DNA of 64,000 nucleotides from positions 1 to 64,000 of IMG/VR virus record IMGVR_UViG_3300009314_000003; one strand, given 5' to 3'. Made by a program: the position numbers and the translations under genes. Origin of the DNA: a virus. This document shows, in pieces, positions 4,700 to 64,000 of the stretch (positions are counted from its first letter, which is position 1; each line of letters begins with the position of its first letter). A model generated the notes under the pieces. That model saw nothing but the letters and a program-made list of their open reading frames with translations, did no database searches and was not told the DNA's origin.

Positions 4700-5224
4700 T
4701 TATACGCCGCAGCATTTCTTGTGCTTTCTCCCAGAATTGCAGGGGCACGGTTCATTCCTTCCCACCTTCATGTGGGAAGCGCTGCCTTTCGCTTGGCGGT
4801 CATATATTGTTATCCCGTTGATGTGATCCACTTCGTGCTGGATGCAAGCGGTCTCCAGCTGTGATAGATTATCCTTCCCGGCGTAGAAGTATAGGGCCCC
4901 GGGAATATTGTCAGCCTCCACAACAACCCCCCGGGATCTGGAGGTTGTTATAAACTTAACCTCCGGGAGTGAGAGACAGCTCTCCTTCCGGAGATAGGTC
5001 TCTTCCTCCCGCTCTGTAATCACGGGATTAATCAGGTATAGAGGTTCCTTGACTGCCATTGCTATCACGCAGGCGTCGAGGCCTACCTGATTCGCGGCCA
5101 GTCCGACTCCTGCCTTATGGGTTTGGAGCTTCTCCAGGAGCTTTTTACCAATCTCGTGACCTACTTCCTCCCCCACCTCCTTGCAGGGGATTTTGAGCAG
5201 GTCCAGGTTTGTTATGATGTTCAT
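4700..5224 (-). CDS. def: peptide deformylase with C-terminal SEC-C zinc motif
   Basis: All three PDF motifs are present: [21 protein letters not shown]. The C-terminus [19 protein letters not shown] is a SEC-C motif. Start MNIIT at 5224 with GAGGAG RBS. Confidence 0.93.
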
Positions 5225-5430
5225 TGGACCAGCTCCTCTTTCAGGTGGGCGGCCCACCTTTTATTAGCCAGCTGTATTACAGCCAGCTTGACAGGCACCT
5301 TCATGACCTTGTCATGTTTTAGGACCTTCTTCAGCCAGGGGATCCTCTTCTTCATCCCCTTGGCCTTCTTCAAGATCAGGGCTGCCTTGTTTTTGGCCGT
5401 CTTGCTTGTCATACTTGTTTTAGTTTTCAT
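5221..5430 (-). CDS. hypothetical basic protein
   Basis: 69-aa ORF whose stop overlaps the def start (ATGA). Confidence 0.55.
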
Positions 5431-6746: not shown

Positions 6747-9700
6747 TTATTTGTGGTGGTCCACTGTCAGGAAGGCAGATAGCTGCCCGTCCTGTACAAT
6801 ATCTACCACCCTTACTTTACCAGTTACAACGCTGTGTCCATGGTTGGTCCGCTTTGGGCTCCCAGACACAACTTTGCAGCACCTCACACCTTTGATGTAA
6901 AGCCCAAGCCCAAGTTCGTCAGGCTTAATCTCTACACCCGCTAGGTGCTTGGCGGCCTTGACCTTTTCAATGGTCTTAGCCGCCTTCCTGGCGTTGCTCT
7001 TGTCCCCTGGCACATCTTGCCACAACCCAATCACCTTCATCAGGTGACGGGCTGTGGTTGTTCCATTCTCCTCGAATACAGGAGTCAGAATAACCAGCAC
7101 GGTGCCAGTTAACGTCATTGACCCCTTGAGGATATACGTACCAGGCTCCACAACTGTGGACCGGACTTCGCCAAGGATCTTCTTTTGGTAGAAGATCGCC
7201 TTCTTATAGCTTTTACCGTTCTTAGTACAGCTATATCCGATGATAACCTTCCTACCGACGACCTTGTCCAGGGTTTTACCCCACTCAACCACGGACAGAT
7301 CAAATGCAGCCTTCGCATCCTCATCGTCACGTAGCTTCATGGCGATTTCTCTTGGATCATAGCCGAGATCCTTGGCATGTCCTTTCCAGCCTCCATACAG
7401 CCGGACCCGAGGAGCGGGATGCTCCTCAGGTCTTAGGACTGTATAATCACGGGGCACCCTCCCAAAGCCGCCGTATTCATCGTTGAGACAGTCAACAATG
7501 ATATCAGCAACTCCGGCCGTGAAGACCACGGACGCCTTGGAACCCTTCTTGGACCTCTCAGCAGCCTCGTGTCCTGCGTTCCACAGGATACGAACCGCGT
7601 CCTTGAAGGACTTATGGTCCATGGCCTCACGTAAGTAGGCCCAATGGCAGCGGTTGGTTTCACACACCACCGTGATGGACTCGCCCCGGGTCAAGGATCC
7701 CTCCTTGGTGCTGGTGAGGACCTTGGCAATGGCGACATTGTAGTCCTTCACCATGTCAATGACCTCATCATTGAGGGTCAAGTCAGAGGGACTCCCCAGG
7801 AAGCCGAAGAACGTTCCTGGATTGAACCCGTCCAGAATGGCTTCCAGGTTGTCCTCCTTCAAGGCATCACGGACCTTCAGGACGAGCCTGTTCAAGAAGT
7901 GATCAGGCTCAACATCCCAGTCCGTATTACCCGCACGGATCTCGGCCAGGGCGCTCCTGTGGAACGGACTCTTGCCCGTGAAGAACTTCAGGAGCTCATC
8001 CACAGTGTCCTGTTTCTTCTCGGGGAGTCTTTCGCTCCACTTGTGAGCGGCCACTGCGAACGTAGTGGCCAGGCCAGTGAGCTCGGCTGCACTCTGGACT
8101 GTCAGCCCAAGTCCCTTCAGGAACTTGACTGCATTAGCATCATCCTTCCGCAGAAAGATGTTGTGCTGAAGCAGCGTCAACGCGCCGATGTTCGGTGCAT
8201 TGAGGAAGGCGCTGACAGCATCAGTGGTACCGAACTTGTGCCACTGGCTCCTGGTGCGCTCCTTGGGCTTGAACGCACCCGGCATCCCGTGCCAGTCCTC
8301 GGCCACCAGGTCGAGCTTGACGTGGTGCGGATCATCCTCACCGCAGCGGCACATTGGGTCGAAGTCGAAGTCACTGTTCATGACCTTGGCCACCGTGCTG
8401 TTGGTGAAGATGCTTCCCCGGCACCTCATGGCCGCAGTCAGCTCCGCATCGTGGGCCTTGTCGCCGTTCATGAGGCTATACAGATAATCCTCATCGACGA
8501 TCTTCAGCCGTGCGAAGTTGCCCGCAGACAACATCGGGATCCTGAAGACCCATTCATTCCCGGACCCACCGGGAACAAATGCCACATCGTCAGGTAGCGC
8601 CTCCAGACATGCCAGGTATGCGCCATCAAAGCGATGATTGGCGCACCTGGCCGCATCTGCGTACTGAGCCAGAAGGTGGTTATATATCTTGCGGGCGATC
8701 CAAGGATGCTTCATCAGCGTTTGACCGACATAGCAAGCCTCCTCGCCACCAGCAAGGACAGCCTTAAGGACCGCGTGGTGGACCATGAAGTCCTCCTGGC
8801 GCTCTTCGAGGTCATTCACGACCTCCAGGTAGCCACGAGGTGTCTTATGGGCCCCATGCAGTTCGCCGAGCCTCTCCATGACCATGGGCCAATCGAGATC
8901 CCTGTAATAGTGCTGAACCTCGATGTTGTCCCTGATCTTGAGATCACGGCTCGCCGCATCGGCCATGATGCCAAGGCGTCCATGGTATTTGTAGGTGCGA
9001 CCTACTTCTACCGGGATCTCCTTTCTTCCCTTGAAGATGGAGATCGGCAGGATTAAGTCAACATCCTCACCACGGACACTAGGCAGCAGGCTACCGGCGG
9101 CCAGTAGATCCAGCTCTTCGAACTCGAGCCTGAACTGCTTCTGGCCCCAGGTATTGTAGCCCGACTCACGAGTGAGTGGGATACTCATCCTGCCCTGGCC
9201 ATCAGCGGTGCCGAGCTCTCCCTCAGCTACCACGAGGAACTTGAAGCTCCCCGCGACAATCACCTCGTGAGAGGTGACGGTCGCCTTGCCATAGGCAACC
9301 ATGTCCTGCGGGGAGCTGAAGAACCTGCGGCGACTGGCAACATATTCCGGATCCGTGCAGACCAAGAGGCGTACGGGTGTGTCCGCCGCATTGCCTTTCT
9401 TGGCGCTCAGGATCTGGCCGGCCCATTTCTGAACGGTCTGCTTGATGAGAACAGACTTGTTCAGATTGCTGCTATTAGATCTCAGCAGCTCGGTCAGGTC
9501 CACGAACCTGAAGGCATCCAGGCTGGTTACTCCAGCCACGATATCCGCCTCCAGAAATGTGTTGAAGTTCGGGACCTCGACCGCTAACCTCTCATCCCGA
9601 CGGTTTGTGATGATCTCGCCGTCCGCATCCTTGAGGTAGAGTGGTCTACCTTGCAGATCGACGACAGGGATCTTCACACTGTGGGTATTATTCCACAGAT

Positions 9701-9872
9701 CCCGCCGGGGGGTAACGTCGAAGCGGCCAAAGGTTACCGGGCCTGAATACAGGTTTCCCTTGGCCTTTTCTTCCTTTATTACTTCCTTACCCACGTCGCC
9801 AAAGATATTGCTGACCAGACGGTCAACCATCTTTGAATCCCGGGCTCGGAAGTTTCTACGTTGTTTACGCAT
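6747..9872 (-). CDS. putative single-subunit two-barrel RNA polymerase (YonO / cellular RdRP-like)
   Basis: Motifs in RdRP/YonO order: ADGQGRMS, QFR, FKG, VFRIP, catalytic-type NSDFDFD (nt 8358-8372), IG, AVAAHK. 1041 aa; GAGG RBS. Confidence 0.65.
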   Translation of the reverse strand: MRKQRRNFRARDSKMVDRLVSNIFGDVGKEVIKEEKAKGNLYSGPVTFGRFDVTPRRDLWNNTHSVKIPVVDLQGRPLYLKDADGEIITNRRDERLAVEVPNFNTFLEADIVAGVTSLDAFRFVDLTELLRSNSSNLNKSVLIKQTVQKWAGQILSAKKGNAADTPVRLLVCTDPEYVASRRRFFSSPQDMVAYGKATVTSHEVIVAGSFKFLVVAEGELGTADGQGRMSIPLTRESGYNTWGQKQFRLEFEELDLLAAGSLLPSVRGEDVDLILPISIFKGRKEIPVEVGRTYKYHGRLGIMADAASRDLKIRDNIEVQHYYRDLDWPMVMERLGELHGAHKTPRGYLEVVNDLEERQEDFMVHHAVLKAVLAGGEEACYVGQTLMKHPWIARKIYNHLLAQYADAARCANHRFDGAYLACLEALPDDVAFVPGGSGNEWVFRIPMLSAGNFARLKIVDEDYLYSLMNGDKAHDAELTAAMRCRGSIFTNSTVAKVMNSDFDFDPMCRCGEDDPHHVKLDLVAEDWHGMPGAFKPKERTRSQWHKFGTTDAVSAFLNAPNIGALTLLQHNIFLRKDDANAVKFLKGLGLTVQSAAELTGLATTFAVAAHKWSERLPEKKQDTVDELLKFFTGKSPFHRSALAEIRAGNTDWDVEPDHFLNRLVLKVRDALKEDNLEAILDGFNPGTFFGFLGSPSDLTLNDEVIDMVKDYNVAIAKVLTSTKEGSLTRGESITVVCETNRCHWAYLREAMDHKSFKDAVRILWNAGHEAAERSKKGSKASVVFTAGVADIIVDCLNDEYGGFGRVPRDYTVLRPEEHPAPRVRLYGGWKGHAKDLGYDPREIAMKLRDDEDAKAAFDLSVVEWGKTLDKVVGRKVIIGYSCTKNGKSYKKAIFYQKKILGEVRSTVVEPGTYILKGSMTLTGTVLVILTPVFEENGTTTARHLMKVIGLWQDVPGDKSNARKAAKTIEKVKAAKHLAGVEIKPDELGLGLYIKGVRCCKVVSGSPKRTNHGHSVVTGKVRVVDIVQDGQLSAFLTVDHHK

Positions 9873-10145
9873 GATACCTCCTCTATTGTGAAAAGAGCGC
9901 CAAAACTACTGGGCGCCCTCCTCGTTTCAGTCTACACCTCCTACTTATTGCAGCAATCACTGCAAGAGCCGGATGATGTAGAATGTGAACTCCAAGCTCA
10001 CCCACAAGCTCTGGAACACCGCGGTCGGCGCTCCTCCTTGTAGGGACTTGGAAATATATCCGCCCCTATGTATATTTGGGGTGGAGTTTATACGCATAGG
10101 CATATCCTCCATATTGAGCCCCTGCCGCAAACAGGGGCTTGTTAG

Positions 10146-11226: not shown

Positions 11227-11886
11227 TTACCTCCTTTCTAGTGCCTTATCCAAACCCTCAAAGGGCCTGAATGTGGCAGCTGTGACCACTGGCTGCTCAA
11301 AGGCCCTATAGTTCTTCAGGACCTGCCTGGCCTTGAAGAACTTGCTCTTGGCCGACCGAAGAGCCTTTCGCTCCCCTGTGGTGGCCGTAAGCAGGAATTG
11401 ATAGGACGTCTCCATAGCTGTCCTCAGTTCCTGCTGAGCAGCGTTGGCCTGGGCTCCACACACACCAACCAGGGCACACATGGCGTCCCAGTCTTCGGCC
11501 GCGTGGCTGAGTCCCTTGAGCTCTTCCTGGAGCCCTAGAGCCTCTTCCCAGTCCCGCCTGGCCCTGGAGCTAAGGCTCTTAGCTTCCTCCAGTTGGCCAA
11601 GCAAGGACTCCATTTGATAACTGGCCTTGATGGCCGCCCTCCTTTCCTGAAGGGCCTCTTCGGCGCAGACCATGATGGCCTTTGCCGCCTTTTTGTCGGA
11701 CTTAAGAGATTCCTCCCTTAAGTCCTTTCTTACTCCAGCCTTGACCTCCATGGCCGCCTTCTTGGCAGCCCACTTGGCCTCAGCCTTCCGGGACTGGGCC
11801 TGTTGCTCAGCCCGGACTTGTGTTTCCCGTGCTTCTTTCACCAGGGCACGGGCTCCCTGGATATTTAGAGTTGCATTCATGACCAT
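11227..11886 (-). CDS. hypothetical coiled-coil protein
   Basis: 219-aa Ala/Glu/Lys-rich ORF with AAGGAGG RBS. Confidence 0.65.
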   Translation of the reverse strand: MVMNATLNIQGARALVKEARETQVRAEQQAQSRKAEAKWAAKKAAMEVKAGVRKDLREESLKSDKKAAKAIMVCAEEALQERRAAIKASYQMESLLGQLEEAKSLSSRARRDWEEALGLQEELKGLSHAAEDWDAMCALVGVCGAQANAAQQELRTAMETSYQFLLTATTGERKALRSAKSKFFKARQVLKNYRAFEQPVVTAATFRPFEGLDKALERR

Positions 11887-13334: not shown

Positions 13335-13387
13335 AGATGACATATCTAAAATAACAGGGGAAGAAAAGGGCTAGGCCCCAAAGAAAG

Positions 13388-13420
13388 GGTTAGGTTTGCG
13401 CCTAATAAATGCTTAAATTA
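13388..13420 (+). promoter_or_regulatory. candidate phage promoter/operator GGTTAGGTTTGCGCCTA-N9-TAAATTA (copy 1)
   Basis: The identical bipartite motif recurs at 15323-15355; this copy lies upstream of the tRNA. Confidence 0.45.
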
Positions 13421-13486
13421 GGAGGTCTCCCCCTCCCCCCCCTCTGTGTATGTGTGTTAAGTCCACCATCACCACATTACCAAGAA

Positions 13487-13562
13487 GCTGATGTAGCTCA
13501 ACTGGTAGAGCAGTTGATTTGTAATCAGCGGGTCGGGGGTTCGATTCCTCCCATCGGCTCCA
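13487..13562 (+). tRNA. tRNA-Thr(UGU)
   Basis: Acceptor stem GCTGATG/CATCGGC, D arm GCTC-AACTGGTA-GAGC, anticodon loop TT-TGT-AA, T arm GGTTCGATT, encoded CCA; 76 nt. Confidence 0.95.
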
Positions 13563-13819
13563 CCACCCGAAGGCTTGCCCACCCCCTGGCAAGGCGAGGT
13601 AAGTCCCGGGAACCCCGGCAGGTTACGATCTGTCGGAAAGCTTTCAAATGCGGGAGAATCATATATATCTGGGCCCTAGCTATGTTAGCAGCCCTAATTG
13701 AGTTATTAAAAGAGAGAAAGAGAGAAGGAGTAAATAGCAGATGAATAGGATAAATGCTTGTGGAGTTAATTAAGAGATATGACAATATGAAAGGAGATAA
13801 TGCCCCTCGGTCGGGTGGG

Positions 13820-14492
13820 ATGACAGATGAGAGCATCTGGCTTACCTCCGACCATCATTAACTTCCGCCATAAGAATGTCCTGAAGTATACCCGACCCGA
13901 ACTGGTGGAGGATCCGGAGAATATTACCAGGGAGGAGATGACCGCCGCTGAGAAGATGATGATTGAGCGCTGGAACTCTGTCGTGGGCCCTGAGGACCTT
14001 GTCTACTACCTGGGGGACTTTACCCTTAACCGCGGCCCCTCCCTCTGTAAATATATCCTGGAGAAGTTACACGGGGCCAGGGTTATCCTTCTCAAAGGGA
14101 ATCACGATAGGAAGACTAAGGCCATGGAGGCCGCCGGCTTCGCGGAGGTGCATAGCCGTCTCTTCCTCAATCAACAGAATGAGGGAGGGCCAACCTGGCA
14201 TACCACCGAACCGATTCAGGAGACTACCTTCCTGGAGCTGCATCACTATCCAGCTACAGTTACCAACAAATTCCCGGCCGCCGTTGGTCATGCCCACAAT
14301 ACCTGGAAACTAAAGGGGCCGGGGACTAAGATGTTACAGTGGGACCGCCAGCAGAAGGAGAATTCCCCCAGTATCATACTTAAGCACCCCCTGATAAATG
14401 TTTCTGTGGAGAATTGGAACTACACTCCCCTGGCCCTCTCCCATGTCATAGCATTGTTAGATGACCCTCCTCCTCCTCCGCTCCTTATATAA
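13820..14492 (+). pseudogene. calcineurin-like metallophosphoesterase, frameshifted near the N-terminus
   Basis: YLGDF, KGNHD and GHAH are in the 13827 frame. The first motif (IWLTSDHH) is in another frame that ends at TAA 13859-13861. Confidence 0.65.
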
Positions 14493-14601: not shown

Positions 14602-14612
14602 TGACATAACTA
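14602..14612 (+). promoter_or_regulatory. candidate late promoter motif TGACATAACTA
   Basis: Recurs in intergenic positions at 44280, 53938 and 62262. Confidence 0.5.
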
Positions 14613-14650
14613 AGGTGACTAAGAAGGGATAAACCCCTAGCCCCCCTGAG

Positions 14651-22077: not shown

Positions 22078-22337
22078 TGTCTAAGGTAGACATAATAGAA
22101 GACGGTAAAAGGCTCTTTATAGACGGAGTTGAGGTAGAGGGGATAGTAACTGTTTCAGTAGAATATAAGGAGCACAATTCTAGTTTGTTTTCCCCATACG
22201 AAGAGCGACAGCGCGGGCAACCTAAATTGACGGTGACTTTTACACCTGATCTGATAGAGTATGAAAAAGACCTGACAGAGCACAGAGTGTCCAAACTTGG
22301 ATGGTCAACAGCAGACGCCCTGGGTATAGAGGAGTAG
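22077..22337 (+). CDS. hypothetical protein
   Basis: Start MSKVD overlaps the upstream stop. Confidence 0.5.
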   Translation: MSKVDIIEDGKRLFIDGVEVEGIVTVSVEYKEHNSSLFSPYEERQRGQPKLTVTFTPDLIEYEKDLTEHRVSKLGWSTADALGIEE

Positions 22338-22339
22338 GA

Positions 22340-23365
22340 ATGAAGCTTCTTTACCTCTCATGCCACGAGATCCTCGAATTCGATGAGGTGAGATTATTTC
22401 ATGAACTGGGCCACAATGTCTTCTCCCCGGGGGCATATGTAGAGCCTAGAAACAGAGGGGATAATCATCTCCGGCCCGATATTCCTGATCCCACCTACGA
22501 CCCCGAGGATGTGGAGGCCTGGCACGCCCTGGGCCGACCGGGGGTTGACAACAAGGAGCTCCTCACCCGGGAGTTTGTCGACCGCTTTGATGTGGTCATT
22601 GTCATGCACATACCAGATTGGGTTGCCAAGAACTGGGAGGCCATGGGCCACAAGCCAGTGGTTTGGAGGACCATTGGTCAATCCGTTAGCTCTGTGGAGC
22701 AGAGGCTTCTCCCCTACCGCCGCCAGGGGTTGAGAATTGTCCGCTACTCCCCCCGGGAGCGTACCATACCTGGCTACATAGGTGAGGATGCCCTCATCCG
22801 TTTCTACAAGGACCAGGATGAGTTCGGCGGCTACGTAGGTGAGAAGCAGCAGGTGATAACCTTCGCCCAGAGTATGAAGCAGAGGGACCAGGCCTGCAAC
22901 TTCACCCTCTTTGAGTCTGTCACCAGAGACCTCCCCCGAACTCTATATGGGCCCGGGAATGAGGAGGTTGACTTCTCCGGCGGCAAGCTCTCCTTTGAAG
23001 AGATGAAGGAAGCCCTGCAGGGCAACAGGGTCTATTTTGCTGCAGGTACAACACCCGCAAGCTATACCCTGAACTTCGTGGAAGCTTGGATGACAGCTAT
23101 TCCAGTGGTTGCTATCGGGCCCCAGTATGGCAATGCTTCCCACTTCCCTGATCACAACCTTTATGAGGTCCCCGACTTTATCAGGAGCGGAGTTAATGGA
23201 TACTGCTCAGATGACCACAAACAACTGCGGCAGTGGTGTATTGACCTACTCCAGGACCACAACCTGGCCCGCCAGATTGGTGAGGAGGGCCGGAAATCAG
23301 CCATAGAGATATTTAACAAGAGGAGGATCAAGGAAGAGTGGAAGCTGTTTCTAAAGAGCCTGTAG
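22340..23365 (+). CDS. glycosyltransferase (GT-B)
   Basis: Start MKLLYL; FVEAWMTAIPVV, DFIRSGVNGY, LARQIGEEGR. Confidence 0.8.
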   Translation: MKLLYLSCHEILEFDEVRLFHELGHNVFSPGAYVEPRNRGDNHLRPDIPDPTYDPEDVEAWHALGRPGVDNKELLTREFVDRFDVVIVMHIPDWVAKNWEAMGHKPVVWRTIGQSVSSVEQRLLPYRRQGLRIVRYSPRERTIPGYIGEDALIRFYKDQDEFGGYVGEKQQVITFAQSMKQRDQACNFTLFESVTRDLPRTLYGPGNEEVDFSGGKLSFEEMKEALQGNRVYFAAGTTPASYTLNFVEAWMTAIPVVAIGPQYGNASHFPDHNLYEVPDFIRSGVNGYCSDDHKQLRQWCIDLLQDHNLARQIGEEGRKSAIEIFNKRRIKEEWKLFLKSL

Positions 23366-23515
23366 GATGGATTTGTGATATGTGTGGCAAGTCCACCTAC
23401 CACACCGAGTATGACTACCTGGTTACTCCCCGACTCCACCTGGGCTGCTATTTGGATGATCAGATGAAGCATCCCCTGGAGAAGGCCGTGGAGGAGGTAC
23501 TGTCGGAGGACAATA

Positions 23516-24211
23516 ATGAACAGCAGTAACAATATCTCAGACTTCCTGTATGTACGCAAGGACTGGTTCACCAGAGCCTACGCCGATAAGCTGGATCACC
23601 GCTTCCCTACCATGAAGGCCGCCCTGAACCTCTTCTACCAGCGCGGGGGCGAGACGATAGTAGAGACAGGCTGCCAGCGGCTGGTGGATGACTGGGGAGC
23701 CGGTTGCTCCGCCCAGCTCTTTGCTGAGGTAATTAGGCATCACGGCGGCCAGCTACATAGTGTAGACAACGACAGGACCCATCTGGACACAGCCCGGCGG
23801 ATTGTCGGGGATCAGCAGGTTAGTTTCTATCTCCAGGACTCAGTAGCCTTCCTGATGAACTTTGGAGGGCCGATAGATCTCCTGTATCTGGATAGCTATG
23901 ACTATCCCTACTTCGAACTTCTTGATATCTATGGTGGGCGCCACAGTACTGAGGCTATAATGGCCCTGGATGGTTTAGAGGAGGAGGAGATAGTTGAGCG
24001 TCACGGGGATTTAATCATACCCTGTCAGGAGCACTGCCTAAGAGAACTTACTGCCGCCCGGGATAAGCTACACGACAGGAGTGTAATCCTAATTGATGAC
24101 AACAACTTCCCCGGGGGCGGTAAACCCCGCCTGGCCCGGGAGTATCTCAAGGATCGGGGCTGGGAGGTGATTCTGGACTATCAACAGACACTATGGACCA
24201 AGAAGCAGTAA
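23516..24211 (+). CDS. class I SAM-dependent methyltransferase
   Basis: IVETGC, HSVD, DSV, IDLLYLDS, ILIDD. Confidence 0.85.
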   Translation: MNSSNNISDFLYVRKDWFTRAYADKLDHRFPTMKAALNLFYQRGGETIVETGCQRLVDDWGAGCSAQLFAEVIRHHGGQLHSVDNDRTHLDTARRIVGDQQVSFYLQDSVAFLMNFGGPIDLLYLDSYDYPYFELLDIYGGRHSTEAIMALDGLEEEEIVERHGDLIIPCQEHCLRELTAARDKLHDRSVILIDDNNFPGGGKPRLAREYLKDRGWEVILDYQQTLWTKKQ

Positions 24212-24783
24212 AACGTGCCTTCTTAGTTGTGGGCCCTGAGTCGAGCGGTACACGCTTCCTAACCAGGCTGTTCATCGCGTGTGGTTGTTTAGGAGACGGT
24301 GGGCATTATCAGAGGCTTGATTCTTATTTCTCTATGGTCCCTGGTAGTCTTAAGGATGTTGGGGAAGAGGGTATCAGTATTGATATTGATGGTGTGGATC
24401 TGCTTGTGTGGCGGAGAAGCCTCCCCCATGGGGGGCGTGAGGAGTGGCCTGATTTAAGGCTAATGATAAAGGCCCTTAGGAGGCGTGGGTTTGAGGTGTG
24501 GGTTGTGGTTATCCTTAGAGATTGGCTGGTAACTGCGAAGTCACAGGTCCGGAGGGGTATGGCGGCGTCAGTTGATGAGGCTTTGGAAAGGATACACAGA
24601 AGTGTACTCAGTTCCTTAGAGGCGATCAAACACGAGTCTGTGGCTTGGCACGTGGTATTATATGAGTCGCTAGTTCTTCACCCCCACAGCGCCACAAGTC
24701 AGCTGTTCAAGCATTTAGATTTGACATTACCGGCCAAGTTTGAGAAACCAGTGGATATGAACCTGAAATACTATGGCAACTAA
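24193..24783 (+). CDS. sulfotransferase-family protein
   Basis: PAPS-binding-like VVGPESSGT, ILRD..V.AKS, YESLV..P. Confidence 0.75.
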   Translation: MDQEAVKRAFLVVGPESSGTRFLTRLFIACGCLGDGGHYQRLDSYFSMVPGSLKDVGEEGISIDIDGVDLLVWRRSLPHGGREEWPDLRLMIKALRRRGFEVWVVVILRDWLVTAKSQVRRGMAASVDEALERIHRSVLSSLEAIKHESVAWHVVLYESLVLHPHSATSQLFKHLDLTLPAKFEKPVDMNLKYYGN

Positions 24784-25831
24784 TAGAGTACTAGTAGATC
24801 TCCATCATGCTGACCTTTTCTATTCCCTTCAGCTCCTCTTCGAGAAGCGACTCGGTGCAGAAGTATTCAGGCCCATTGGTATGGAGTGGTATACCGAAGG
24901 GTACTGGCATGTATATCCCCACATCAATGTGGCCCGGCAGTACCTAGGTATGGATAACAGCATTATCCACAAAGACGTACACGGACAACCCTTGGACAAG
25001 TCTGCCTGGGTTAATGCGTCCTACACAACCTCGGGTGATGGAATCTACTATGTCATGGATGTTACCAAGGATAAGCTGAATAGGGGCATCACCCTGGAGG
25101 CGTTCAAGGAAACTGAGTTTGATATCATCATCTCCTCAATACCGGCCCACATTAGGCCATTCAATGAACTCATCAGGCTATACCAGCCCAGGGCCAAGCA
25201 TATCTTCCAGATAAGCAATTCCTGGACCTTCGATCCCGATGTACGGAATATCATGTCATCCGCCTCTCCCTTCCCTACTACCAAGCACGCAATCTTCTAT
25301 CACCAGGAGTTTGAGCTGGATACGTTCCACTATGAGCCGCCACAGGGCGTAGCGACTGTATCGAGCTTCATTCACTACATGCAGGAGATGGATATTCGCA
25401 ACCGCTTCGCAGCCATGCTTCCAGATTGGACTTTTCGCTCCTATGGCGCTGGAATGCCTGAGGGCAATATTTGCAAGACGGCCGAGATTGCCGATCGGAT
25501 GCGGGAGAGTGACTTCATCTGGCATGTCAAGCCAGGCGGGGACGGGTTTGGTTATAACATCCACGAGGCCTACGCCGTTGGCCGTCCTGTTATTACTCGT
25601 ATGCATCATTACAGAGGCAAGCTGGCCGAGCAGCTGCTTACCGATCAGGAGACCTGCATCGACCTTGATAGGTACACGGAGCAGGAGGTGGCCAGCCAGC
25701 TTGAGTACTATAATACCAACCCAGAAGAACACCTGGCCCTGTGTCAGAGGGCCTATGATCGCTTTGGGAAAGTGGTCGACTATGATCAGGAGTTTGAGGA
25801 GCTCAAAACCTTTATGGAGGACTTGAGATAA
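24773..25831 (+). CDS. glycosyltransferase (GT-B)
   Basis: GDGFGYNIHEAYAVGRPVI. Confidence 0.75.
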   Translation: MATNRVLVDLHHADLFYSLQLLFEKRLGAEVFRPIGMEWYTEGYWHVYPHINVARQYLGMDNSIIHKDVHGQPLDKSAWVNASYTTSGDGIYYVMDVTKDKLNRGITLEAFKETEFDIIISSIPAHIRPFNELIRLYQPRAKHIFQISNSWTFDPDVRNIMSSASPFPTTKHAIFYHQEFELDTFHYEPPQGVATVSSFIHYMQEMDIRNRFAAMLPDWTFRSYGAGMPEGNICKTAEIADRMRESDFIWHVKPGGDGFGYNIHEAYAVGRPVITRMHHYRGKLAEQLLTDQETCIDLDRYTEQEVASQLEYYNTNPEEHLALCQRAYDRFGKVVDYDQEFEELKTFMEDLR

Positions 25832-26820
25832 TGAAGAAGAGAGCGTTAATAACGGGAATCACGGGACAGGACGGCAGTTATCTTGCTGAGATCCTACTGG
25901 AGAAGAGGTACGAGGTCTTCGGCCTGGAGCGCAGGGCGTCCCGCAAGAGGCGGGACAATGTGGCCCACATAGAAGATAAGATCAACTGGCTGACCGGCGA
26001 CCTGGCGGATCAAAACTCCATCTACCGCGCCGTGCGGGAGTCCGAACCCGATGAAGTTTTCCAATTGGCTAGCCAATCATTTGTCAAGGAGAGCTGGAAC
26101 TCCCCCGAGTACACAGGTGATGTCACGGGTCTTGGGGCCCTCCGGGTCCTGGAGGCAGTACGTGAGTATGGAGAGCCGGTGAAGTTCTATCAGGCCAGCT
26201 CCTCAGAGATGTTTGGCAGGATGGTAGAGAACCCAGCCAATGAGAATACCCCCTTCTACCCCCGCTCACCCTATGGTGTAGCCAAACTCTACGCCCACTG
26301 GATTACGGTTAACTATCGTGAGAGTTATGATATGTTCAACTGCTCGGGAATACTGTTTAATCACGAAGGACCACGTCGGAGTCTGGAGTTTGTCACCCGT
26401 AAGATCACACACGGAGTGGCCAGAATAGCACTTGGCCTAGACAGTTACATTACTCTTGGTAATCTGGACGCCAAGAGGGACTGGGGGCATGCTCGGGACT
26501 ATATGATGGCGGCGTGGATGATGTTGCAACAGGAGAAGCCGATGGACTTTGTCATAGCGACAGGCGAAAACCACTCCATCAGGGACTTCCTATCTGAGGC
26601 GTTTAGGTGTGTTGGCATAACTGATTGGGAGCCGTATGTCAAGCAGGACCCGCGCTTTATGAGACCAGCCGAGGTTAATGTTCTGTGTGGTGATGCCGCA
26701 CGAGCCAGGCTCCTACTAGGCTGGGAGCCAACCGTCTCCTTCAAGGAGCTAGTGTCTGGAATGGTGGAAAATGACATAAAACAGTTGACGGAGGTTAGAA
26801 AGACGGTAAAGGAGTCATAG
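25831..26820 (+). CDS. gmd: GDP-mannose 4,6-dehydratase
   Basis: ALITGITGQDGSYLAE, FYQASSSEMFG, PRSPYGVAK, GILFNHE, LGNLDAKRDWGHA. Confidence 0.97.
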   Translation: MKKRALITGITGQDGSYLAEILLEKRYEVFGLERRASRKRRDNVAHIEDKINWLTGDLADQNSIYRAVRESEPDEVFQLASQSFVKESWNSPEYTGDVTGLGALRVLEAVREYGEPVKFYQASSSEMFGRMVENPANENTPFYPRSPYGVAKLYAHWITVNYRESYDMFNCSGILFNHEGPRRSLEFVTRKITHGVARIALGLDSYITLGNLDAKRDWGHARDYMMAAWMMLQQEKPMDFVIATGENHSIRDFLSEAFRCVGITDWEPYVKQDPRFMRPAEVNVLCGDAARARLLLGWEPTVSFKELVSGMVENDIKQLTEVRKTVKES

Positions 26821-44279: not shown

Positions 44280-44290
44280 TGACATAACTA
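44280..44290 (+). promoter_or_regulatory. candidate late promoter motif TGACATAACTA
   Basis: Intergenic, upstream of the scaffold/capsid genes. Confidence 0.5.
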
Positions 44291-44314
44291 TATATAGCAG
44301 GACAACTGCATAAA

Positions 44315-45022
44315 ATGATGATAAATGATAACTATCCATCAATAAGTAGTAACACGTTACAGAGCCTCACAGAGATACTCTATCATATTCCCCTAGACAA
44401 ACTCGACCGAATTAAGAAGGTGGTCGCATATAGCGGCTACTCTGAGGAAGTGGTAGATATATTTCTGCAGGCACTGACTCAAATAGGAGACAAAATGTCC
44501 ATGACTATGAACCTTGAGGAAATTCTGGCCTTGGATGAGGTTCAGGAGCACCTTAGACAGAAGGTTGACGAGGCTGTACAAAACAGTGAGATAACTCATC
44601 GAGAAGAGTCGGCTGATATAAAGGCCGGGTTTGAGAATGAGTTGCAAGTACTCAGGGATGAGAAGAATACTTCCGCCCAGGAGTACCATGCGCTTGTTGT
44701 GGACAGTATCGTCTTCCTATCAACCATACTACGTAAAGACGTCATTGATTTTAATGATGAAGCAGGATCCCAGGAGAAATATCGGGAAGAGCTATCAAGT
44801 AGTTCCGAAGAGGAATTGAAAGAGACACTCTCCGAACTCCAGGGCGAGTACATTGCTTCGTTTAGCAATGTTCCGGCCGAATCTCTTGACGGCGAAGTCG
44901 TTACAGAGAGCGGTCAGAGAAACCCCTCCGAGGGTTCTGATGGAGATGAGAAGGCAGTGACAATATCATCACTTGGTGATGTTCTCAAAGTAGCCTTCAA
45001 ATCCATTGGAAAGAATAATTAA
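44315..45022 (+). CDS. probable capsid scaffolding protein
   Basis: Acidic coiled-coil ORF upstream of the capsid genes; the true start may be MSMTM at 44495. Confidence 0.55.
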   Translation: MMINDNYPSISSNTLQSLTEILYHIPLDKLDRIKKVVAYSGYSEEVVDIFLQALTQIGDKMSMTMNLEEILALDEVQEHLRQKVDEAVQNSEITHREESADIKAGFENELQVLRDEKNTSAQEYHALVVDSIVFLSTILRKDVIDFNDEAGSQEKYREELSSSSEEELKETLSELQGEYIASFSNVPAESLDGEVVTESGQRNPSEGSDGDEKAVTISSLGDVLKVAFKSIGKNN

Positions 45023-53937: not shown

Positions 53938-53948
53938 TGACATAACTA
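53938..53948 (+). promoter_or_regulatory. candidate late promoter motif TGACATAACTA
   Basis: Intergenic, upstream of the intron-split tube gene. Confidence 0.5.
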
Positions 53949-54030
53949 ATTACAAGAGCTCAAGGGCCGGCAGTTAATACTGCATAGAGCTGAGGGCCAT
54001 TAACTTCTGAAACAAGGAGATGTAAATACA

Positions 54031-62258: not shown

Positions 62259-62261
62259 CCG

Positions 62262-62271
62262 GACATAACTA
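62262..62271 (+). promoter_or_regulatory. candidate late promoter motif GACATAACTA
   Basis: Intergenic, upstream of the chaperone genes. Confidence 0.45.
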
Positions 62272-62324
62272 AACTACAAACAGAATTAAACTCATAACAT
62301 ACATATATGGAGGATAAACCATAA

Positions 62325-62747
62325 ATGATTGAAGAACAACAACAGCAAGAAGAAGAAGTAACGGAAGAAGTAATGCTCCCAGAGGAAGTAATATCCCCCG
62401 AGGATTTATTTGAGGGAGATGATTCCTATCCTTACGGTCCTAAGGGGCCCAGCCGAGCTGAAATAAATACCCTCAAGGAGAAATATGGTGATCTACAACT
62501 AACTGAAGTTGCTGGCAATATCTATATCTACCGCCTTATGCTCAGGGGTGAGCATATGAAGCTGGTGGAGAGCGGCGCCCTGGAGGGCGATGATTCAGAG
62601 ATGATTACCGTGGAAACTCTCCTTGTCTGGCCTAATCCTAAGGAGATCGACTGGGATGCTGTAGGGGCCGGAGTGGTACCCACCCTATCAACAGATATGC
62701 TTCAGTTCTCGGGCTTCATTCGCTTAACCCAACCCATCAAGCTATAA
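62325..62747 (+). CDS. probable tail assembly chaperone
   Basis: I..LK.KYG...YIYR.L, LVWP, AG...TL...I/M...SGF. Confidence 0.65.
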   Translation: MIEEQQQQEEEVTEEVMLPEEVISPEDLFEGDDSYPYGPKGPSRAEINTLKEKYGDLQLTEVAGNIYIYRLMLRGEHMKLVESGALEGDDSEMITVETLLVWPNPKEIDWDAVGAGVVPTLSTDMLQFSGFIRLTQPIKL

Positions 62748-63490: not shown

Positions 63491-64000
63491 ATGCCGGATC
63501 AGAGAGAGACATTCGAAGAACTACAGCCACAGGAAGGTGGTGGGGCGCTGAAACAGCTTGCTGGTTTAGGCCTTGCCCTTGTAGGCTGGGGTATAGGCCT
63601 CACCCTGGCCAGATTCGGATTTACGGCCGGTAAAGCAGCTGCCTTGAAACGGCTGGCTGGTATAAAGAAACCAGCCACAGAGGTTCTTAAGCGCTATAAG
63701 ACAGCAGCTATTTACGCACAGGACAAGGGAGGTAGCTTCTCCCATTTTGCCTCCAAGGCAGGTATGCCTGGTGGTAAAGCATTAGCGGACATACGTTATG
63801 CGGCTGAGGAATCTCCTATAATCAAATCCTTTAGGACCTCAACTAAGAATAAGAGTATACTACAGAAGGTTGGAACCTACCGTAGTTTCCCCAGGGGTCA
63901 GAGAATAGAACTTGGACGGGGCCTTGCTGCTCACTACGGGCGGGAAATGGCTTTTGTGGCCCCTACCTTCTATGTTGGGGAGCAGATGCTCGGACGTTTG
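63491..64000 (+). CDS. start of a large Gly/Ala-rich protein (possible tape measure), partial
   Basis: MPDQRETFEELQPQEGGGALKQLAGLGLALVG... is open to the window end and follows the chaperones. Confidence 0.5.
   Translation, partial: MPDQRETFEELQPQEGGGALKQLAGLGLALVGWGIGLTLARFGFTAGKAAALKRLAGIKKPATEVLKRYKTAAIYAQDKGGSFSHFASKAGMPGGKALADIRYAAEESPIIKSFRTSTKNKSILQKVGTYRSFPRGQRIELGRGLAAHYGREMAFVAPTFYVGEQMLGRL

Follow-up and report, generated by a model that had tools for sequence, protein, structure and literature searches.

Introduction

The ancestor of all cellular RNA polymerases is believed to have resembled the single-chain RNA polymerases built on two double-psi beta-barrels (DPBBs). The latter have been studied in just a handful of cases, namely YonO of phage SPbeta, the eukaryotic RNA-silencing enzymes QDE-1 and RDR2 (family PF05183), gp66 of phi14:2, a crAss-like phage, and gp64 and gp96 of phage P23-45. 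In this study, we examined a gene for a protein of 1041 amino acids (aa), designated P0001, in a 64,000-nucleotide stretch of viral DNA (hereafter, the window), which is the first 64 kb of the 147,988-bp IMG/VR virus record IMGVR_UViG_3300009314_000003 (77% complete by CheckV). We put at roughly 80% the probability that P0001 serves a large uncultured myovirus as a non-virion, single-subunit RNA polymerase of the two-barrel type, acting by the mechanism proposed below. Such a label would annotate an otherwise blank gene of 1000 aa.

The phage enzymes described so far serve different gene classes. YonO, a single chain of roughly 100 kDa, transcribes the late genes of SPbeta (PMC5467207). P23-45 has a virion and a non-virion polymerase, and a published survey indicated that many viruses encode two. 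The non-virion enzyme, gp64, transcribes the early genes and some of the middle ones, whereas the late ones are read by the host polymerase, and gp96 is fused to the tape measure protein (PMC10770324). Eight residues are common to all two-barrel polymerases, which in QDE-1 are D709, R738, K743, R962, P964, D1007, D1009, and D1011 (Ruprich-Robert and Thuriaux, PMC2919709). The fourth position of the metal-binding motif DxDGD was reported to be Gly in all previously studied polymerases, and gp66, which carries DFDID instead, is active although its metal motif was in a non-catalytic state in the crystal (bioRxiv 10.1101/2020.03.07.982082).

Identification of the gene

The first-pass annotation of the window had placed an open reading frame (ORF) of 1041 aa at 6747-9872 and read it as a single-subunit two-barrel RNA polymerase with a variant active site. 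The ORF list and the translation confirmed the frame, with an ATG start, but on the minus strand; the plus-strand frame over the same positions contained many stops. A public gene call (P0002) starts at Met15 and gives a protein of 1027 aa. The coordinates of this gene and of its features are listed in Table 1.

Predicted fold of P0001

An AlphaFold2 model was built on an alignment of 13 sequences spanning 20-51% identity. Its mean pLDDT was 65.5, with values of 83-91 at residues 200-290 and 76-91 at residues 410-520. When the model was compared with the PDB by Foldseek, 28 matches were obtained at E ≤ 1e-3, and all 28 were two-barrel polymerases, from QDE-1 (3.6e-12) through RDR2, P74-26 gp62, gp64, and P23-45 gp96 to crAss phi14:2 gp66 (1.3e-4); the next match had an E value of 0.03. 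VIA-align superposed the model (residues 64-596) on maize RDR2 with a Z score of 16.4 and an rmsd of 4.0 Å over 431 residues, followed by QDE-1 (Z 16.2), gp62 (Z 14.6), and gp96 (Z 12.4). As a control independent of Foldseek, the model was aligned exhaustively to 48,161 PDB representative chains. The top ranks were again QDE-1 (Z 15.7), gp62 (14.6), RDR2 (13.2), and gp96 (12.4), and the next ranks were the largest subunits of Pol I, Pol II, African swine fever virus (ASFV), and bacterial polymerases, which aligned on residues 413-531 with Z of about 8. Matches in BFVD were phage entries named 'RNA-dependent RNA polymerase', P23-45 gp64, and crAss-like segments.

In the same exhaustive alignment, residues 414-512 matched designed and VCP-type DPBB domains (rmsd 2.0 Å over 75 aa), and residues 204-304 matched DPBB-fold proteins on their own, for example expansin (Z 7.0, 93 aa). 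Because residues 204-304 and 413-513 separately matched DPBB proteins, each of the two barrels was recognised independently. Furthermore, residues 413-513 of the model superposed on residues 346-472 of the E. coli-type beta-prime subunit with an rmsd of 1.8 Å over 78 aa (Z 8.3-8.8); D501, D503, and D505 would fall on beta-prime D460, D462, and D464 if the last stretch is ungapped. The structure searches indicated that the fold is unrelated to that of the T7-type polymerase. A search for the T7-like RNA polymerase family PF00940 gave no match in the record, the control genomes likewise remaining without a match.

QDE-1 and RDR2 were thus the best structural matches (Z 15.7-16.4), with 420-470 residues aligned over both barrels and the connecting region, whereas sequence identity to them was 12-14%. 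P0001 differs from QDE-1 in being phage-encoded and in carrying, in place of the QDE-1 N-terminal and head regions, other elements together with a twin beta-barrel module at the C terminus. The closest solved phage enzymes were P23-45 gp64 and P74-26 gp62 (PMC10770324), with an rmsd of 4.3 Å over 407 aa for gp62. These, too, are two-barrel polymerases of a single chain, and their genes stand apart from the structural genes and are expressed early; however, they have no detectable sequence similarity to P0001, are about 600 aa long, and come from long-tailed Thermus siphoviruses, not from a myovirus with a tail sheath. Taken together, the two predicted barrels and the superposition of the core on QDE-1, RDR2, gp62, and gp96 (Z 12-16) support the polymerase reading of the first-pass annotation, as does the conservation of the metal-binding Asp residues described next.

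Active-site residues

All seven motifs that had been listed in the first-pass annotation were found in the translation and in the order claimed: ADGQGRMS (223-230), QFR (246-248), IFKG (279-282), VFRIPML (442-448), NSDFDFD (499-505), NIG (561-563), and AVAAHK (606-611). In the 13-sequence alignment, D224, R248, S278, F280, K281, P446, D501, and D503 were invariant in all 13 homologues, and D505 was conserved in every homologue whose sequence extends that far, so that the three aspartates of DFDFD were kept in all the homologues found. With these residues invariant over the alignment, the seven motifs go beyond chance.

The mapping of these motifs onto those of RNA-dependent RNA polymerases (RdRPs) required correction at two points. 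IFKG is not the RdRP 'KG' motif; it belongs to an S-x-F-K motif that is also present in YonO (SQFK315). The column of the Lys in the RdRP and sister-family 'AKG' is occupied by Ala259 in P0001, by Thr in its close relatives, and by Lys in the sister family (AKGT). In addition, AVAAHK is without the Asp of 'AVD..K'. Three of the four close relatives have AVDSHK at this point and the remaining one has AVD-YK, so that P0001 has lost this Asp. By order, spacing, and invariance, the eight universal residues would map to D224, R248, [Ala259], R444, P446, D501, D503, and D505; the sequence alignment shows seven of them, with no obvious counterpart for the 'KG' lysine (QDE-1 K743).

The order of the catalytic landmarks (D, QxR, RxP, DxDxD) is the same as in QDE-1 and RDR2. 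When the family profile was searched against the PDB sequences, the top matches were QDE-1 and gp96; although not significant (E 0.09-0.8), they were aligned exactly at RxP ... DxDGD. In YonO, likewise, S-x-F-K, R-x-P, and DxDxD are collinear, at 315, 492, and 535 compared with 281, 444, and 501 in P0001, and the spacing from FK to DxD is almost identical (220 and 221 residues). YonO differs in having DNDGD, with Gly, and a comparison with the 13-sequence profile was not significant (hhalign probability 0.4%).

The substitution of Phe for the usual Gly in DxDGD, which had been pointed out in the first-pass annotation, is correct: position 4 is Phe504 in P0001, and Met in all four close relatives, whose motif is DFDMD, while the sister family retains Gly (DFDGD/DSDGD), as do QDE-1 (DYDGD) and gp96 (DFDGD). 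The substitution has a precedent, however, in gp66 (DFDID), the sole characterised polymerase family in which we found a bulky residue at this position. gp66 shares the two-barrel fold (PDB 6vr4; Z 7.8), but it resembles P0001 in structure far less closely than QDE-1 or gp62 does, and it is a virion-packaged protein of 2180 aa encoded in the structural block. The P0001 family is a second instance in nature in which a bulky residue stands in for the 'invariant' glycine, and it has a close sister family that keeps Gly, so that a Gly/Phe swap would be a clean test of the role of this residue. In addition, one of the eight universal residues is apparently lost.

These two changes at near-universal positions, Gly to Phe and Lys to Ala, could mark a polymerase-derived protein that no longer polymerises, and a non-Gly residue did distort the metal motif in the gp66 crystal. 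We give this explanation hardly any credence. The four metal-binding Asp residues, R248, and R444/P446 are kept among relatives at 20-50% identity, and their retention at such low identity argues for selection on catalysis; moreover, gp66 with DFDID is active. P0001 is very probably an active two-barrel RNA polymerase.

Homologues of P0001 and family assignment

A word-indexed search of 5.8 billion clustered sequences retrieved P0001 itself and four metagenomic relatives of 48-51% identity, one of them truncated. The family is thus very rare, comprising five clusters at 90% identity. Within it P0001 is the outgroup, with 51-55% identity to the others and 59-68% among the others. Relaxed selection on P0001 was considered and dropped, as its 60 private substitutions are explained by the outgroup position. 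Eight further proteins, with E values from 6e-7 to 3e-4, came from searching 1.8 billion representatives exhaustively with HMMER; seven of these are 709-780 aa long, and the other is a fragment of 393 aa.

The five-member family was related to the sister family (P0007-P0014) with an hhalign probability of 99.8% and an E value of 2e-29 over residues 98-794. The sister family matches PHROG 34895 (about 710-780 aa). Two of its members match the Pfam RdRP family PF05183 at 18.5-20 bits, under the cut-off of 23.8 bits, and two gave weak matches to PHROG 4291, 'RNA-dependent RNA polymerase'. P0001 alone gave no PF05183 match at E ≤ 1, and the whole genome gave none at E ≤ 10. It matched neither PHROG 4291 nor, on its own, PHROG 34895, and for the latter reason it was treated as a sister and not as a member of that group. 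The PHROG 34895 proteins are true homologues, and in a phage-like contig one of their genes likewise lies at a divergent switch point; on the other hand, they have only 20-24% identity to P0001, keep the AKG lysine as well as the Gly of the metal motif, and are without the C-terminal extension of about 240 aa.

Other searches were negative. P0001 gave nothing in Pfam, PHROGs, or the PDB sequences beyond a meaningless PHROG match (E 0.046); tblastn of P0001 and of the sister-family protein P0013 against 50,697 phage records gave no matches; and pattern scans of IMG/VR and JGI metagenome contigs based on the family alignment found nothing. The family profile A1 matched only Prp8 in the PDB, which was judged to be due to chance. 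P0001 probably works like YonO, gp64, and QDE-1 but belongs to no named family. The enzyme type itself is already known in phages; the novelty lies in a very rare branch of it that has DFD[F/M]D, lacks the 'KG' lysine, and brings with it a C-terminal module of its own as well as a compact candidate promoter.

With RNA-silencing polymerases as the top structural neighbours and a sister family that matches the Pfam RdRP below threshold, P0001 might be taken for an RNA-dependent enzyme that copies phage or host RNA, for example making double-stranded or antisense RNA. This is highly improbable, as the phage members that have been tested (YonO, gp64, gp96, and gp66) are all DNA-dependent, and there is no known bacterial RNA-silencing pathway that needs an RdRP (PMC2919709). 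QDE-1 itself is also reported to use DNA templates (PMC9508822).

C-terminal extension

The long unexplained C-terminal region mentioned in the first-pass annotation proved to be an extension with no known structural match. Homology to the sister family stops near residue 794, and the extension is confined to the P0001 family. Residues 810-1041, folded alone with three relatives, gave a model with a pLDDT of 76. Compared with the PDB, this module gave a best Foldseek E value of 0.09 and a best Z of 4.7 in the exhaustive alignment, and it had no Pfam match. The matches at Z ≤ 4.7 (OB/WED-like domains of Cas12f/TnpB, the S1 domain of NusA, and NfeD) were all within noise, and no fold was assigned to the module for this reason. 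Our guess is that it binds nucleic acid or a promoter.

Genome layout and a candidate promoter

The ORF map and PHROG scans divided the record into three parts. The leftward arm (1-13.2 kb) contains small genes without assigned function, a peptide deformylase, and the polymerase. The rightward block (13.8-127 kb) begins with nucleases and sugar-modifying enzymes, followed by terminase, portal, protease, major head protein, tail sheath, three giant proteins, and the baseplate. The second leftward arm (127-148 kb) carries a ribonucleotide reductase, a helicase, and a clamp loader. The start of the polymerase gene lies about 3.4 kb from the point of divergence from the rightward arm. On the 33-kb contig of a relative (L008), the gene for a 48%-identical polymerase is the fifth after a comparable switch point, and a sister-family gene is also found at a switch point in a phage-like contig. 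Whereas the YonO gene is located directly upstream of the late operon, that of P0001 is on the arm opposite the structural genes, and unlike gp66 it stands among small non-structural genes. No domains of sigma-70 region 2, Rpb1, or Rpb2 were found in the record; since the control genomes gave matches for all three, these searches work.

A 12-nt motif, TGACATAACTAA, was found in four exact copies in the record, all four intergenic, with 0.03 copies expected. Allowing up to one mismatch, there were 11 copies; 20 first-order Markov genomes contained 0.65 on average and at most 2, so that the motif is enriched 17-fold. All 11 copies are co-oriented with the local genes, and seven of them are intergenic although intergenic sequence makes up 5% of the genome; where a gene follows closely, the copies are 24-90 nt ahead of its start. 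Head and tail genes are preceded by the sites at 44280, 53938, and 62261. A 10-nt core, TGACATAWCT, occurred twice in the relative's contig (L008 7337, minus; 18251, plus), in both cases intergenic and co-oriented, with 0.09 expected; other repeated k-mers in this contig were mostly intragenic and were rejected.

No good copy of TGACATAACTAA was present at the head of the polymerase-bearing arm. The flanks of the copies are not conserved, the spacing gave no sigma-70 promoter, and around the polymerase gene nine sigma-70-type sites were counted, compared with 6.0 ± 2.8 in shuffled sequence, which is no excess. A k-mer search of the minus-strand intergenic regions for a separate 'early' motif returned ribosome-binding sites only. 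The distribution of the motif is consistent with an order of events in which something else transcribes the polymerase arm first, leaving the motif-bearing units to be read next by the new enzyme. We assign TGACATAACTAA only tentatively as the promoter of P0001, an assignment that is possible rather than probable. As the candidate promoter is short and enriched and the C-terminal module is private to the family, promoter recognition can be tested in vitro without phage culture.

The gene content and the distribution of the candidate promoter would fit a role in late transcription, and we lean, if slightly, toward P0001 transcribing the middle or late phage genes. An active P0001 could instead serve only the early and middle genes, in the manner of P23-45 gp64, with the host polymerase and phage factors reading the late genes and owning the 12-nt motif. 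Short motifs do serve as late promoters for modified host polymerases, as in the case of the T4 late promoters. The polymerase gene is situated among early-type small ORFs, and the closest phage structures, gp62 and gp64 (Z 14.6), belong to such a system, gp64 transcribing early and some middle genes. We regard this arrangement as somewhat unlikely: the record contains no sigma-like gene, for which the controls matched, the 12-nt motif is unlike a sigma-70 promoter, and YonO, the other characterised relative, transcribes late genes (PMC5467207).

P0001 might also work in phage DNA replication, where it would make RNA primers or origin transcripts and not mRNA. The record has neither a family A or B DNA polymerase nor a DnaG-type primase, the minus-strand block of the polymerase continues the orientation of the replication arm (127-148 kb), and the two-barrel fold also occurs in the replicative polymerase PolD (Z 7.6). 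However, from the absence of family A and B DNA polymerases and DnaG it follows that replication genes are probably in the missing part of the record, about 23% of the genome, which may hold the primase and the DNA polymerase. In addition, the characterised phage relatives are all transcriptases, and the gene is flanked by small ORFs without assigned function, not by replication genes. A priming role is therefore improbable.

Proposed mechanism and a possible second polymerase

In the mechanism that we propose for P0001 as a non-virion RNA polymerase, the two DPBBs of one chain (residues ~195-310 and 413-528) would face each other. The catalytic Mg ions would be held by D501, D503, and D505 of the second barrel together with D224 of the first, and R248, R444/P446, and the S-x-F-K281 loop would hold the 3' end of the RNA and the incoming NTP in position. 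P0001 would copy phage DNA, the presumed template, into RNA independently of the host polymerase. Expressed from the leftward arm with its small genes, it would then transcribe the middle and late rightward structural genes, possibly starting at TGACATAACTAA and perhaps helped by the family-specific C-terminal beta-barrel modules.

Several points weigh against this interpretation. The case depends on a predicted structure with a mean pLDDT of 65.5, built from the 13-sequence alignment, and P0001 matches no Pfam or PHROG polymerase model and has no detectable similarity to YonO. In the active site, the column of the universal 'KG' lysine is Ala259, position 4 of DxDGD is the bulky Phe, and P0001 departs even from its own relatives in the change from AVD to AVA; in gp66, the non-Gly residue gave a catalytically incompetent conformation in the crystal (bioRxiv 10.1101/2020.03.07.982082). 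Among phage structures the nearest is that of gp64, an enzyme which serves the early and middle genes and not the late ones (PMC10770324). The record is incomplete, so that a sigma factor or another polymerase could be in the missing part. Finally, TGACATAACTAA may belong not to P0001 but to another factor or to a giant DWDGD-bearing protein described below.

The giant protein is the product of a 2634-aa ORF in the tail module (G000 76659-84563, plus strand; locus L003:1-7905). It contains LADWDGDLGMMVF, with DWDGD at residue 2113, and this stretch resembles the NADFDGD strand of polymerase beta-prime. The protein had no match in Pfam, PHROG, or a phmmer search of the PDB. Against the 13-sequence profile it gave an hhalign probability of 0.1%, and a local HMM of the barrel region gave an E value of 1.9. 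Its only relative in the databases is a truncated copy of itself. From this motif, the protein may be a second, virion polymerase. In a two-polymerase relay, the injected 2634-aa polymerase would read the leftward early arm, after which P0001, with an active site lacking the universal Gly and 'KG' Lys, would read the rest from TGACATAACTAA through its C-terminal twin beta-barrels. Such a relay is unlikely; if true, the P0001 active site, working without these two residues, would be arranged in a way new to the oldest polymerase fold.

Table 1 Positions of the polymerase gene, its predicted domains and active-site segments, and copies of the candidate promoter motif. Positions are those of the window unless marked G000.
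Feature	Position	Strand	Basis or remark
Polymerase coding sequence (P0001), including stop codon	6747..9872	-	ORF list, translation, full-length homologues at 48-51% identity
Ribosome-binding site GAGGAGG, 5 nt from ATG	9877..9883	-	Read from sequence
Predicted first DPBB, beta/Rpb2-like, residues ~195-310, with D224, R248, S278-x-F280-K281	8943..9290	-	pLDDT 83-91, DPBB match, inside QDE-1/RDR2 superposition
Segment TADGQG...QFR, residues 222-248; D224 and R248 probable counterparts of QDE-1 D709 and R738	9129..9209	-	Translation, invariance, PMC2919709; order and spacing
Ala259, column of the sister-family AKGT Lys; counterpart of QDE-1 K743 absent	9096..9098	-	13-sequence alignment
Predicted second DPBB, beta-prime/Rpb1-like, residues 413-528	8289..8636	-	Rpb1/beta-prime and DPBB matches
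R444-I-P446, counterpart of QDE-1 R962/P964 and Rpb1 R446/P448	8535..8543	-	Translation; profile aligns with QDE-1 'vaRsP'
Metal-binding motif DFDFD (D501, D503, D505), Phe504 where nearly all two-barrel polymerases have Gly	8358..8372	-	Translation; Asp invariance; profile aligned with QDE-1 DYDGD and P23-45 gp96 DFDGD
Mostly helical region, residues 530-800, with NIG and AVAAHK	7473..8285	-	Sister-family homology to ~794; pLDDT low, 27-75
C-terminal extension, residues 810-1041, predicted helical hairpin and two small beta-barrel modules	6750..7445	-	Separate model
Motif copy TGACATATCTAA, head of plus-strand arm	13338..13349	+	Candidate phage promoter
Exact copy of TGACATAACTAA, intergenic	14602..14613	+	
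Motif copy TGACATAACTAT, 24 nt before gene at 44315, between head protease and major head protein	44280..44291	+	
Exact copy of TGACATAACTAA directly after tail sheath gene	53938..53949	+	
Motif copy GGACATAACTAA, 53 nt before gene at 62325	62261..62272	+	
Further TGACATAACTAA motif sites outside the window	G000 122937, 125255	+	
Further TGACATAACTAA motif sites outside the window	G000 127684, 128624	-	Second leftward arm

Other features of the locus

Directly upstream of the ribosome-binding site of the polymerase gene, at 9891-9918 on the minus strand, there is a terminator-like hairpin (GGGCGCC ... GGCGCTC, then TTTT), and a further hairpin at about 10110-10140 follows the stop of the gene upstream. 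These hairpins suggest regulated read-through into the polymerase gene. Within the gene, two antisense ORFs are present on the plus strand, at 7644-8597 (317 aa) and 8634-9056 (140 aa), which are most likely not genes, having arisen instead from its high GC3. GC3 was 0.62-0.68 in a subset of genes (6747-9872, 11227-11886, 13827-14492, and 22301-26820), whereas the mean over the genome was 0.45 ± 0.08. Most extreme in this subset is the polymerase gene, with a GC3 of 0.68 and a GC content of 0.555 compared with 0.456. The subset could be of foreign origin or could form a separate expression class.

Among the neighbouring genes, the peptide deformylase of the same leftward arm (4700-5257, minus strand) has a C-terminal SEC-C zinc motif (Pfam 4e-24 and 2e-7). 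A tRNA-Thr (TGT) is located at 13487-13562 on the plus strand, at the head of the rightward arm and 149 nt downstream of a motif copy, and an ORF called at 13409-13744, which overlaps it, is probably spurious. In the relative's contig, a nucleotidyltransferase of the poly(A) polymerase/CCA-adding type (PF01743, PF12627) is encoded directly after the polymerase gene (L008 13591-14895, plus strand); no PF01743/PF12627-type nucleotidyltransferase adjoins the polymerase gene in the window.

Two large proteins carry intein-like sequences. An ORF of 4392 aa, extending from window 63491-64000 on to G000 76669 (plus strand), contains several inteins, with five intein splicing and four LAGLIDADG_3 stretches at residues ~1650-2900; a Cas4/RecE-like PD-(D/E)XK nuclease domain is found at residues 3694-3831. 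In the ribonucleotide reductase of 1389 aa (G000 139783-143952, minus strand), the PHROG match is split and intein-, helicase-, or endonuclease-like matches occur at ~920-1100; for these reasons this protein also probably bears an intein.

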